From the NCBI GenBank assembly GCA_000004985.1, contig GG739301.1: a stretch of 1,951 nt of DNA. One strand, given 5' to 3'. This stretch comes from Naegleria gruberi. Its lineage: Eukaryota. Positions 1-1,951 of the stretch are shown one piece after another. Under the pieces are notes generated by a model. The model worked only from the letters and a program-made list of their open reading frames with translations, was not told where the DNA came from and did no database searches. A program made the position numbers and the translations under genes. The first letter of the stretch is position 1; each line of letters begins with the position of its first letter.

Positions 1-633
1 TGAATTGTCTAATATTAACATGTCGTCTATGTAAATAAATATGATTGTGCCTCTCTGCCTCCATTTCTTGATAACTTCCTTCATTATTATGATGAATAAC
101 TGAGGGGCTGTACTTAAACCGAACGGAAGGCATTGAAAGTGGTAAGTTTTGCCTTCGAAGATGAATCCTAATAGGACTTTGTGTTGTTTCCTTACTGGAA
201 CTTGAAAATAACCTTTCTTTAAATCCAGCTTGCATGCCCACATTCCTTTTCTTATGAATTTCATAACTTTTTGAATGGATTCCATCTTGAATGTGTCTGT
301 GCTTATGCCACCGTTTATCTTTCTTAGGTCCAAGATAAACCTGTATTGGTCTGAACCTTTCTTTGGGACAACGTTGATAGGATTTAGAACTGGATTTAAA
401 GAATAGGCTATAATATGGTTTTGTAACATGGAGTCTATCTCTCTCCTTATCCATGCTTTCTCTTTCTGAGAGAACTTCCTCTGGTGGTAGCTTTTCCATT
501 GGCTGGAATCTGTATCGATTGGAATTCCGTTTTTTATCCAATCTACGATTGTTTCTGAGACGCCGAATTCTTTCCAACGTTGATGGAAATGAGAGAGTCT
601 GCCACCTAGAGGAACCTGCTTGTCACTTATTGA
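1..633 (-). CDS. Retroelement pol ORF, N-terminal half of the reverse transcriptase domain. Probably DIRS-like (tyrosine-recombinase retrotransposon); Ty3/gypsy-like is the alternative. Partial: the C-terminal remainder lies beyond the window start.
   Basis: I translated the minus strand by hand in the frame ending at position 1. There are 211 sense codons between the stop TAG (plus 634-636) and the window edge. The translation reads SISDKQVPLGGRLSHFHQRWKEFGVSETIVDWIKNGIPIDTDSSQWKSYHQRKFSQKEKAWIRREIDSMLQNHIIAYSLNPVLNPINVVPKKGSDQYRFILDLRKINGGISTDTFKMESIQKVMKFIRKGMWACKLDLKKGYFQVPVRKQHKVLLGFIFEGKTYHFQCLPFGLSTAPQLFIIIMKEVIKKWRQRGTIIFIYIDDMLILDNS. Canonical RT blocks and their plus-strand coordinates: GGRLSHF..W (586-606), VVPKKGSDQYRFILDLRKIN (313-372), KLDLKKGYFQVPV (193-231), LPFGLSTAP (103-129), YIDDM (19-33). 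The spellings R-x-I-L-D-L-R-K-I-N (rather than CVDYRxLN) and LPFGLSTAP (rather than MPFGLxNAP), together with the GGRL..F...W....D..V..WI..G N-terminal motif, are what I recall as diagnostic of DIRS/Ngaro-type RTs. Confidence 0.85.
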
Positions 634-636
634 CTA
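1..636 (-). mobile_element. Retrotransposon fragment (minimal extent; the pol ORF runs off the left edge). The 5' boundary, any ITR/LTR, and gag are not identifiable in the window.
   Basis: The RT ORF above supports this. No long ORF or terminal-repeat structure is recognisable in 637-1340, so only the coding part can be delimited. Confidence 0.75.
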
Positions 637-1260
637 AGATTGATTGAGGAGGAGGAATTGGAGTTGTTAGAACCGTATCCATGGTTATTAAATTGTCTTC
701 TTCCAATATAAGTGGTTGGTGTTTGCTCTTGGCTATTGGAATGGTATGAGTGATATGGGACGAAGTGGTTGGACTTTTGATTAAATCTTCTCTTTTGAAA
801 GTTTATTATATTGAGAGACAGGGTTAATAATAATAAATGTTGAATAAGAGAACAATAAGACCATTACAAAAAAAGGAAGAAGACCCTCTTCTTCCTAATC
901 AAAAAAGTAAGGAATCTGTTGGGTTCCTAAACTGGTTAAGAGAATTAATCTGTTCATGGTCTATACTGTTGAGTTTCTCAATGATTGTAGCTCTTGTTGT
1001 TGTTTGCTTAATTGGACTTGCATGGAATTTGTGAATCAGGATACCACAGATAATAGAAACTTGTATCCTAAGAAAGGAATGCAAGAATTTGTTAATCAAA
1101 TGGTGTGGTTGTGGTGAGCATTTAACCATGTTGATTAATAAAAGGAAAGTGTTGTTGATACTTGGAGAAGCAAGTCTTCCTCTTTTAAATTCAACTTTTG
1201 CTTCATATTCAGCAGAAATGAAACTTGCAATCAAAATATACTATCAGTAACATGCAAAAC

Positions 1261-1268
1261 TATAAAAC
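1261..1268 (+). promoter_or_regulatory. TATA-like element (TATAAAAC). It lies about 80 bp upstream of ATG-1342 and about 165 bp upstream of ATG-1426.
   Basis: The sequence tataaaac is present at 1261-1268, with A-rich flanks. The call rests on position and consensus only, and AT-rich DNA produces many such matches. Confidence 0.2.
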
Positions 1269-1341
1269 TAAAAACGATAATTGAACAATATCTTAATTTT
1301 CATTTAGAAACTGAGTCTTTATTAGCTCGTGCTCATAAACC

Positions 1342-1951
1342 ATGTTAAAAATTTTCACTTTTTCAAAAACTTCCTCTTTTCAAAAACGGACCAAATTTGT
1401 CGAATTAGATGACCTCAAAGAAAAAATGAAGAGAAGGTATTGTCCTGTTGTTTTACGCTCTCTCCTTGGAGTATCATCATCATCTCGTAGTGGAAAAGGC
1501 TTGAATTCAATCAATTTTTCCTCAACTTTGCAAGCCAATCTAACAAAAAACATTTCGAATGGAATGTTATGTTCCGAGAATTTTCATCATCATCATCATC
1601 ACGGAAGAAGTATTGGCTTGGATTATATTAAAACAGCTTTTAAAGCTTTTTCAAAGAGTGAAACTGTAAATTCGGAACCAAAGACTGCTAGTAGTGAAAA
1701 ACAAATTCAAAACGAGTCATCTACAAGTACAACAATAATTGATTCCGAATTTTCCAAGGATAAAGAATACAAGAAATTGGAATCCATGGAAAAGAAGAGA
1801 AGATTTGAGAATATTATTAATTATTACGTGTTAAATTGCAAGAAAAAGCCACTTGCTAATCCAGATAGAGATTTTGCTCTCTACAAATTCTTTTTGAATG
1901 CCTTTTCAATGATTAGACAGGCTCACAGTGCTTTGGATTGTTTAAACGAGT
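1342..1951 (+). CDS. 5' part of a protein-coding gene of unknown function. It is open to the window end with no stop. The alternative, and perhaps better, start is ATG 1426. The N-terminus from Met-1426 is presequence-like (possibly mitochondrial targeting), and the protein carries a natural His6 run.
   Basis: The frame is defined by a stop TAA at 1336-1338. The first ATG is at 1342-1344 (context aaaccATGt) and the second at 1426-1428 (context aaagaaaaaATGaag, A-rich and yeast-like). From 1426 the translation is MKRRYCPVVLRSLLGVSSSSRSGKGLNSINFSSTLQANLTKNISNGMLCSENFHHHHHHGRSIGLDYIKTAFKAFSKSETVNSEPKTASSEKQIQNESSTSTTIIDSEFSKDKEYKKLESMEKKRRFENIINYYVLNCKKKPLANPDRDFALYKFFLNAFSMIRQAHSALDCLNE... That is 175 codons without a stop in roughly 35% GC DNA, which is very unlikely by chance. 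The 28-codon N-terminal extension from 1342 reads MLKIFTFSKTSSFQKRTKFVELDDLKEK. Confidence 0.6.
   Translation, partial: MLKIFTFSKTSSFQKRTKFVELDDLKEKMKRRYCPVVLRSLLGVSSSSRSGKGLNSINFSSTLQANLTKNISNGMLCSENFHHHHHHGRSIGLDYIKTAFKAFSKSETVNSEPKTASSEKQIQNESSTSTTIIDSEFSKDKEYKKLESMEKKRRFENIINYYVLNCKKKPLANPDRDFALYKFFLNAFSMIRQAHSALDCLNE
1358..1387 (+). repeat. Near-tandem duplicated motif CTTTTTCAAAAAC / TCTTTTCAAAAAC, with a 17-bp offset.
   Basis: TTTTCAAAAAC occurs at 1360-1370 and again at 1377-1387. The motif lies 40-65 bp upstream of ATG-1426 and is in frame if ATG-1342 is used. Confidence 0.5.
1585..1602 (+). repeat. (CAT)5CAC trinucleotide microsatellite in the coding frame, giving HHHHHH.
   Basis: catcatcatcatcatcac is read directly at 1585-1602. 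Position 1585 is in frame with ATG-1426/1342. Confidence 0.9.

Follow-up and report, generated by a model that had tools for sequence, protein, structure and literature searches.

We analysed a 1,951-nucleotide (nt) stretch of the Naegleria gruberi genome (contig GG739301.1, assembly GCA_000004985.1), referred to here in its full length as the window. Window positions 1-803, read on the minus strand, very probably derive from a DIRS1-type tyrosine recombinase (YR) retrotransposon, of which they represent the 5′ part of one defective copy, in a lineage that has named Naegleria members. In particular, the fragment carries two overlapping open reading frames (ORFs), one encoding the N-terminal part of pol with its reverse transcriptase (RT), and the other corresponding to the start of a long ORF that encodes the YR in intact relatives. 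The parts encoding RNase H, methyltransferase (MT), and YR would lie to the left of the window.

Two overlapping open frames

Translation of the minus strand from window position 633 to position 1 gives 211 codons with zero stops and reaches the left edge of the window without a stop. A first-pass annotation, made from the letters alone, had described exactly such an uninterrupted frame at 1-633, running off the window edge in AT-rich DNA, and both descriptions hold (GC content of the region, 0.36-0.40). All five motifs that it quoted are found in the minus-strand translation, in the order claimed (positions in amino acids, aa, of the frame, then in the window):

aa 10-20, window 574-606, minus strand: GGRLSHFHQRW
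aa 100-107, window 313-336, minus strand: ILDLRKIN
aa 135-147, window 193-231, minus strand: KLDLKKGYFQVPV, an RT motif
aa 169-177, window 103-129, minus strand: LPFGLSTAP
aa 201-206, window 16-33, minus strand: YIDDML

The Pfam check that the annotation had proposed gives an RVT_1 match at residues 89-208 (E=4.4e-18; 66.2 bits, cutoff 29.6). The fragment spans the N-terminal region and the RT fingers and palm, up to the YIDD box; the 211-codon frame is the first third of pol, from the GGRL region to YIDD. When the window was shuffled 2000 times, the longest open stretch across the six frames had a mean of 81 codons and a maximum of 190 codons, and a chance origin of the frame is excluded because none of the shuffles reached 211 codons.

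The same DNA carries a second open frame, overlooked by the first-pass annotation and designated pol-1. The two frames, and the codon that opens the second, are as follows:

1..633, minus strand: pol ORF fragment, 211 codons stop-free, running off the left edge (from its translation and RVT_1 match)
2..622, minus strand: second overlapping frame, pol-1 (= +2), 207 codons stop-free, the 5′ part of a long YR ORF
623..625, minus strand: TGA (context TGA-C), homologous to the gag stop of relatives and opening frame 2-622 (from the alignment with relative L001)

We assessed dual coding by permuting synonymous codons among positions, with the RT protein and the codon usage held fixed. The window pol-1 frame contains one stop, the opening TGA, versus 9.3+-2.3 expected, and 0 of 5000 permutations gave a number that low; the window +1 frame contains 24 stops, slightly above expectation. 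The pol-1 frames of four related loci (described below) gave the following results:

L002: 596 codons tested, 29 stops expected, 0 observed
L008: 618 codons tested, 37 stops expected, 0 observed
L009: 620 codons tested, 33 stops expected, 0 observed
L010: 622 codons tested, 24 stops expected, 0 observed

The collinear pol-1 frame in L008 is a 905-codon ORF that ends in Phage_integrase. The window DNA is dual-coding, and its pol-1 frame makes up the beginning of the long ORF whose end encodes the YR in intact relatives. An overlap of the pol and YR ORFs has been described for DIRS-1-type elements (PMC3266345; PMC5633606), and its presence is the best, direct in-window evidence for a DIRS1-type layout.

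Relatives and placement among YR retrotransposons

To identify relatives, we performed an exhaustive protein search with the 211 aa against 1.84 billion representatives (35,779 matches) and, in addition, a profile search, followed by per-domain re-scoring and a Pfam census on 58 of the best matches. The window RT is 82% identical in aa sequence to P0002 (locus L001), 73% identical to P0161 (L008), and 70% identical to P0003 (L002); these proteins and P0001 are the members of a subclade, 66-83% identical to the window, that comes from unannotated metagenome or SRA assemblies only. The named relatives are hypothetical proteins of N. fowleri (XP_044565474, 56%) and N. lovaniensis (XP_044555891, 52-53%); together with the base composition, they point to a heterolobosean, Naegleria-like source of the DNA. 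The locus L007 was obtained as a contig by means of a degenerate NPINVVPKKG DNA pattern; a scan of JGI metagenomes with the relatives' alignment gave 182 pattern matches and no relatives.

The closest full-length relative is L008 (Logan SRR26782601; pol protein P0161), which has the following ORFs:

44-958: gag
810-2816: pol, with RVT_1 and a weak Dam-like match
1004-3721: third ORF, 905 codons, overlapping all of pol and ending in Phage_integrase (28.6 bits; cutoff 27.1)

The gag/pol/YR order is shared by L009 and L010, which are 56% and 47% identical to the window, respectively, and have YR matches of 39.9 and 44 bits (cutoff 27.1). The N. fowleri locus L004 (KAF0980761, VFQX01000017.1) comprises gag, then a pol that is frameshifted and matches Dam at 43.1 bits, then a YR ORF that contains HSMRIGSAT and matches Phage_integrase at E=1.9e-5 (24.9 bits; cutoff 27.1); comparison of this YR ORF with the PDB gave no sequence match. 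In the distant relative L006, the equivalent overlapping ORF has 1090 codons; a Pfam scan of its C-terminal 266 aa gave no match, and its C-terminal domain aligns to the Pfam-positive YR of P0053 (BLASTP E=1e-17). Dam (PF05869) is above its cutoff of 28.1 bits in N. fowleri (43.1), P0008 (31.2), and N. lovaniensis (29.3). The layout of the intact relatives is gag, followed by pol (RT, RNase H, and Dam-like MT) in the +1 frame, followed by the YR ORF, which shares the frame of gag and extends across the whole of pol.

Three of the related loci have features of their own. L010, which is a complete relative, has two ends that overlap by exactly 30 nt, and L010 1-4127, L011, and L012 (Logan ERR2815209, ERR2815274, and ERR2815266) are circular permutations of one ~4.1-kb sequence, obtained independently from three runs; one possible cause is the existence of tandem or circular copies (DIRS circular intermediates), and another is closure of the assembly graph by the terminal and internal complementary repeats. 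L002, otherwise intact, has an in-frame stop in the pol frame at ~1150, at the conserved Trp of GGRLxxFxxxW (FHSK*KKF, with the asterisk marking the stop); because of this stop the called protein P0003 starts at MSETILDWI, and the stop implies that several environmental copies of the subclade are also defective. In L005 (N. lovaniensis), the 3′ end of pol/MT (9603-9734) is repeated in inverted orientation ~930 nt downstream (10668-10787), in blocks of 64 nt at 95%, 30 nt at 90%, and 18 nt at 94%, which may represent a rearranged or nested DIRS copy or a structure related to inverted terminal repeats (ITRs) or an internal complementary region (ICR).

By published definitions, RT, RNase H, MT, and YR with overlapping ORFs denote a DIRS1-like or PAT-like element and exclude Ngaro and VIPER (PMC3266345). 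The pol/YR overlap of DIRS1-like elements is present in the window (frame 2-622) and in L002, L008, L009, and L010. Ty3/gypsy elements are marked by an aspartic protease upstream of the RT, an rve (DDE) integrase downstream, and long terminal repeats (LTRs); neither a protease nor rve is present in the close relatives of the window.

DIRS1-like and PAT-like elements are set apart by their termini (ITR and ICR versus split direct repeats), and the window contains no element terminus. In L004, an imperfect inverted pair of 28-29 nt at 6440-6467 and 10642-10669 (TGTAAAAAACTATTTTAGTAATAATATT and its reverse complement, 75-86%) brackets the gag-to-YR unit of ~4.2 kb; as a candidate for short ITRs this pair is suggestive only. 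A search for direct repeats of at least 18 nt found none across the N. fowleri element and its flanks, in a degenerate copy 56% identical to the window.

It is improbable that the element, while belonging to the DIRS order, is PAT-like (with split direct repeats) or of the Ngaro/VIPER type, and not DIRS1-like proper. PAT-like elements encode the same set of RT, RNase H, MT, and YR, and it is chiefly the termini that distinguish them (PMC3266345); the window has no terminus, and the N. fowleri ITR evidence, 28 nt at 75-86%, is weak. However, the search turned up no direct repeats around the N. fowleri element, and the N. gruberi elements have been assigned as DIRS1-like by TBLASTX against re-annotated references (Piednoel et al. 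2011, PMC3266345). Ngaro and VIPER, for their part, lack an MT and usually have non-overlapping ORFs, whereas the relatives of the window have a Dam-like MT and a YR ORF that overlaps pol extensively.

The comparison of RTs also points to a YR-encoding element. The Pfam census of the 58 top matches found RVT_1 in all 58, Dam in 17, Phage_integrase in two, and rve in one, the last being a protein with two RT copies and a low per-domain score. The window RT aligns to single-domain relatives, many of them MT- or YR-linked, at 105-286 bits per domain, mostly from query residue ~2-11 and with the GGRL region included. P0034, P0043, and P0067, which carry rve or retroviral protease by Pfam, align at 58-70 bits from residue 41-61; each has two RT copies, which alone accounts for the high rank of these gypsy-type proteins. 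Pfam detects no rve or protease in relatives at least 39% identical to the window or on the contigs of close relatives, and no aspartic protease is encoded upstream of the RT in the window. The window RT appears, from these similarities, to group with the RTs of YR-encoding elements. The first-pass annotation had made the same assignment, in preference to Ty3/gypsy, BEL, or copia, and the bit-score gap and the presence of MT and YR, but not DDE integrase, in relatives bear it out; the protein search that it had suggested recovers near relatives with RT, RNase H, and Dam-like MT and finds no protease and DDE-integrase architecture among them.

A Ty3/gypsy origin, or an origin from another element with LTRs and a DDE integrase, with the motifs explained by the known closeness of DIRS and gypsy RTs, has a very small probability and is strongly disfavoured. 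The RT and RNase H of DIRS elements are known relatives of those of Ty3/gypsy (PMC3266345), a few gypsy-type proteins occur among the top 150 matches, and the best match among solved structures is Ty3 RT (4ol8, E=1.6e-16, 63.8 bits; also 7q5b). However, LTR-retrotransposon and retroviral RTs make up all of the top PDB matches, with no YR-element RT among them, and the PDB ranking therefore cannot separate DIRS from gypsy. Gypsy-type proteins leave the first 40-60 residues unaligned and score far below MT/YR-linked proteins, and in L008, L009, L010, and L004 a YR ORF comes immediately after pol.

For an intact DIRS1-type element, the RT would copy the element RNA into complementary DNA (cDNA). 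By analogy with the literature on DIRS-1, this would be a single-stranded cDNA with ends restored on the ICR, and a circular double-stranded form would then be inserted by the YR without target-site duplication. For DIRS-1 itself, a single-stranded cDNA, restoration of ends on the ICR, and YR-mediated insertion of circular double-stranded DNA have been described (PMC3266345, PMC7192593), as has frequent insertion into older DIRS copies, resulting in many fragmented copies (PMC7192593, PMC3266345).

Truncation, frame breakage, and age of the copy

Upstream of the RT frame, the window retains remnants of gag and of the pol N-terminal extension, interrupted as follows:

626..802, minus strand: remnant of the pol N-terminal extension (ending in ITMDTVLTTPIPPPQSILVNK, also rendered as HITHTIPIAKSKHQPLILEEDNLITMDTVLTTPIPPPQSILVNK, then a stop), which contains an ATG (680-682) and no longer shares the frame of the RT
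627..803, minus strand: gag tail, last ~57 codons, N/S-rich (NFQKRRFNQKSNHFVPYHSYHSNSQ...INLSQ, then the stop); the rest of gag is absent
633..645, minus strand, approximate: net +1 frame-breaking indel, with 10 extra nt relative to L001 (blastn), in low-complexity sequence
803..804: breakpoint, the end of homology to related elements

DNA similarity to L001 (82.7%) extends from the left edge to window position 803 only. The gag proteins of L002, L007, L008, L009, and L010 match only the gag tail of the window (tblastn); the 1.15 kb of window sequence upstream lacks the ITSKQQEKAIKK gag block that L001, L002, and L008 have in common, and window 804-1951 has no similarity to any fetched element locus. 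The remnant of the pol N-terminal extension is collinear with the pol frame of L001 (HHFIQTIPITTNNHINPIVEEEHSTAKDPIQTTPIILDPTIDDEQIPLGGRL); a long open stretch of the pol frame precedes PLGGRL in L001, L002, L007, and the N. fowleri copy. The indel at 633-645 of the window separates the gag tail and the pol N-terminal extension from the downstream frames. Relative to gag, pol is in the +1 frame in L001, L002, L007, and L004 (N. fowleri) and in the -1 frame in the window; because pol is +1 in all relatives, the arrangement in the window is attributable to mutation. A programmed -1 frameshift at the gag/pol junction of the window was considered and rejected, with a stop-to-stop overlap of 7 nt and pol in the +1 frame in all relatives.

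The RT frame opens immediately after a TAG (window 634-636), its first Met is residue 69, with no earlier ATG, and five in-frame stops occur within ~60 codons upstream of it. Thus, because of the 10-nt indel, the 211-codon frame follows a TAG, lacks a usable start, and is cut off from gag. Judged from its sequence, the copy appears to be 5′-truncated (or interrupted) and frame-broken, and for that reason it would be unable to transpose on its own. This 5′-side damage, comprising the loss of gag and the indel just upstream of the ORF, had been missed by the first-pass annotation.

It is quite improbable that the copy is intact and active, with 804-1951 belonging to the element (as a divergent gag or 5′ region, or as an opposite-strand ORF at 1426-1950) and with the apparent frameshift being programmed recoding or an assembly error. 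Two overlapping frames are fully open over 620 nt, the ratio of nonsynonymous to synonymous substitution rates (dN/dS) is low, the indel falls in low-complexity DNA, which is prone to assembly errors, and a long plus-strand ORF is present at 1426-1950. On the other hand, the conserved gag body, including ITSKQQEKAIKK, is missing from the 1.15 kb upstream; no minus-strand ORF of more than 113 codons is present upstream of the element fragment; the frame relation of gag to pol is unlike that in all four loci compared (L001, L002, L007, and L004); and the plus-strand ORF is directed away from the element, with neither the relatives' loci nor the protein database containing a homologue of it.

Both overlapping frames of the defective copy are still intact, and this suggests that its inactivation was recent. 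Of all single substitutions that could occur in the 633 nt, approximately 11% would introduce a stop into one frame or the other, and the absence of a stop from either frame places the number of neutral substitutions since the loss of selection at <~26 (~4%) at the 95% level. The dN/dS of the RT is 0.18 versus L001 and 0.14 versus L002, the pairs used because dS is saturated versus L007 and L004; these values are conservative because dual coding depresses dS. The low dN/dS reflects purifying selection on an active lineage. The description of the copy in the first-pass annotation as young or under purifying selection is therefore reasonable, given these dN/dS values, the two open frames, and the limit on neutral decay. 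Its prediction that the remainder of the element would be found on the left-hand side has the direction right.

That the fragment is a host-domesticated RT gene of DIRS origin, kept open for a cellular function, is extremely improbable: the RT frame is open despite the loss of gag and its dN/dS versus relatives is low, but it has no ATG or promoter-proximal start (first Met at residue 69, stops directly upstream), the YR-ORF frame is preserved as well, as expected of a recent transposon copy and not of a domesticated RT, and low dN/dS among transposon copies reflects selection on the active lineage.

Several points count against the assignment of window 1-803 to a defective DIRS1-type copy. 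No catalytic sequence of RNase H, MT, or YR lies within the window, and the architecture is taken from relatives of 47-73% identity and from the overlapping frame. The maximum identity of any database protein to the window RT is 83%. The Dam-like match is below the cutoff, at 18.8-23.1 bits, in the closest relatives (L001, P0161, and P0003) and passes only in distant ones, and the sole trace of terminal repeats in N. fowleri is the 28-nt imperfect inverted pair. Concerning the damage, the indel lies in low-complexity sequence and could be an assembly or sequencing error, and the DNA past 803 could be an insertion into gag, not a truncation.

The gag stop, the flanking DNA, and known systems

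The stop that ends gag is TGA in seven of seven relatives, followed by C in six of the seven, and is in the same frame as the YR ORF. Its positions are as follows:

L008, 956-958
L002, 1106-1108
L009, 1198-1200
L010, 1037-1039
L004, 7799-7801
L001, 653-655
L007 (reverse complement), 1240-1242

This TGA, conserved in position, is the sole stop between gag and the YR ORF, with pol embedded in the +1 frame; past the TGA, intact elements have a further 920-936 codons of open gag frame, up to where the YR ends. The layout raises the possibility, which we regard as doubtful, that a Gag-YR fusion is made by programmed UGA readthrough, with pol expressed from an internal start or by a +1 shift. If readthrough did occur, the recombinase would be packaged with Gag. 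Two caveats apply. First, a conserved Asp/Glu codon of pol, whose frame overlaps the TGA, in part dictates this triplet. Second, in L008 (2813-2816) and L009 (3061-3064), but not in L010, the pol stop overlaps an ATG of the YR frame (A-ATG-A), and a start there could express the YR domain alone. The ATGA of L008 and L009 has the layout typical of termination-reinitiation coupling. In our literature search, expression by readthrough was not found to have been proposed for DIRS elements. The window fragment retains the TGA-C and the open frame downstream of it, yet is broken upstream. The gag-TGA-YR arrangement with pol in the +1 frame represents compact dual coding, is a property of the family, and could be used to study protein expression in DIRS elements.

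To the right of the element fragment (804-1951), the window contains one long ORF:

1426-1950, plus strand: ORF of 175 codons from ATG, in a frame open from 1339, running off the right edge, away from the element

The predicted product has a basic, Ser-rich N-terminus, a His6 run, and a helical-looking C-terminal part, and a TCA x6 repeat is present within the ORF at 1584-1601. An open run of this length occurred in 1 of 2000 shuffles. The product has no Pfam match, no homologue among 5.8 billion proteins, and no similarity to the fetched loci, and the ORF may be a fast-evolving host gene. Short tandem repeats are present at 1256-1280 (8-nt unit x3.2) and 1347-1387 (17-nt unit x2.4), in the most AT-rich stretch of the window (GC 0.27-0.30), between the element fragment and the plus-strand ORF; this stretch is probably intergenic or promoter DNA. 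Positions 600-1200 have a strong positive GC skew on the plus strand (0.2-0.33), and this region includes a minus-strand ORF at 899-1234 (111 aa) without a Pfam match or a relationship to the fetched DIRS loci. Searches of the window for Rfam families, tRNAs, and meaningful repeats or ITRs found none.

Annotators should mask window 1-803 as a fragment of a DIRS-type retrotransposon and make no gene call there. The fragment adds a member to a DIRS subclade otherwise known only from unannotated environmental assemblies. The clean state of the two overlapping frames makes it probable that other copies in the same genome are active or were so recently, and active copies would bear on the genome stability and the repeat libraries of these amoebae.

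Comparison with known systems places the fragment as follows. Ty3/gypsy RTs (4ol8 and 7q5b) share the RT fold family and the order of motifs with the window RT, but are much less similar to it than MT/YR-linked RTs and lack the GGRL N-terminal region; Ty3/gypsy elements encode a protease and a DDE integrase, both of which are absent from the close relatives of the window. PAT-like and Ngaro/VIPER elements encode a YR and have related RT and RNase H, and PAT-like elements also have an MT. They differ in that PAT-like elements have split direct repeats and Ngaro/VIPER elements lack an MT and usually lack overlapping ORFs, whereas the relatives of the window combine an MT with extensive overlap. 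The group was founded on DIRS-1 of Dictyostelium discoideum, an element of three ORFs that partly overlap; its pol, which encodes RT, RNase H, and MT, overlaps the YR ORF (PMC3266345; PMC5633606), and on the basis of this published layout DIRS-1 shares pol/YR double coding with the window. In the relatives of the window, the YR ORF extends over the whole of pol, in the gag frame and beyond a single TGA, an arrangement not found described for DIRS-1 in the literature searched. Fragments account for many of the genomic DIRS-1 copies, and new insertions commonly land in older ones (PMC7192593).

The nearest systems are the DIRS1-like elements of Naegleria itself. Seven copies in six families were reported in N. 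gruberi, classified as DIRS1-like by TBLASTX and described as having "too many frameshifts or indels" (PMC3266345), and 89 DIRS fragments make up 0.32% of the N. lovaniensis genome (PMC6125883). The RTs of the Naegleria DIRS1-like elements are 52-56% identical to that of the window over the shared region, and the elements have the layout of the window lineage, with gag followed by pol (+1, Dam-like MT) followed by YR. In particular, they share with the window an N-rich gag tail, a TGA gag stop, and an open pol-1 frame over the RT. They differ in that the window belongs to a separate subclade and lacks the gag body. The reported N. gruberi copies are, like the window copy, often frameshifted or fragmentary. 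The element is an ordinary, already known kind of mobile DNA, as reported in Naegleria.

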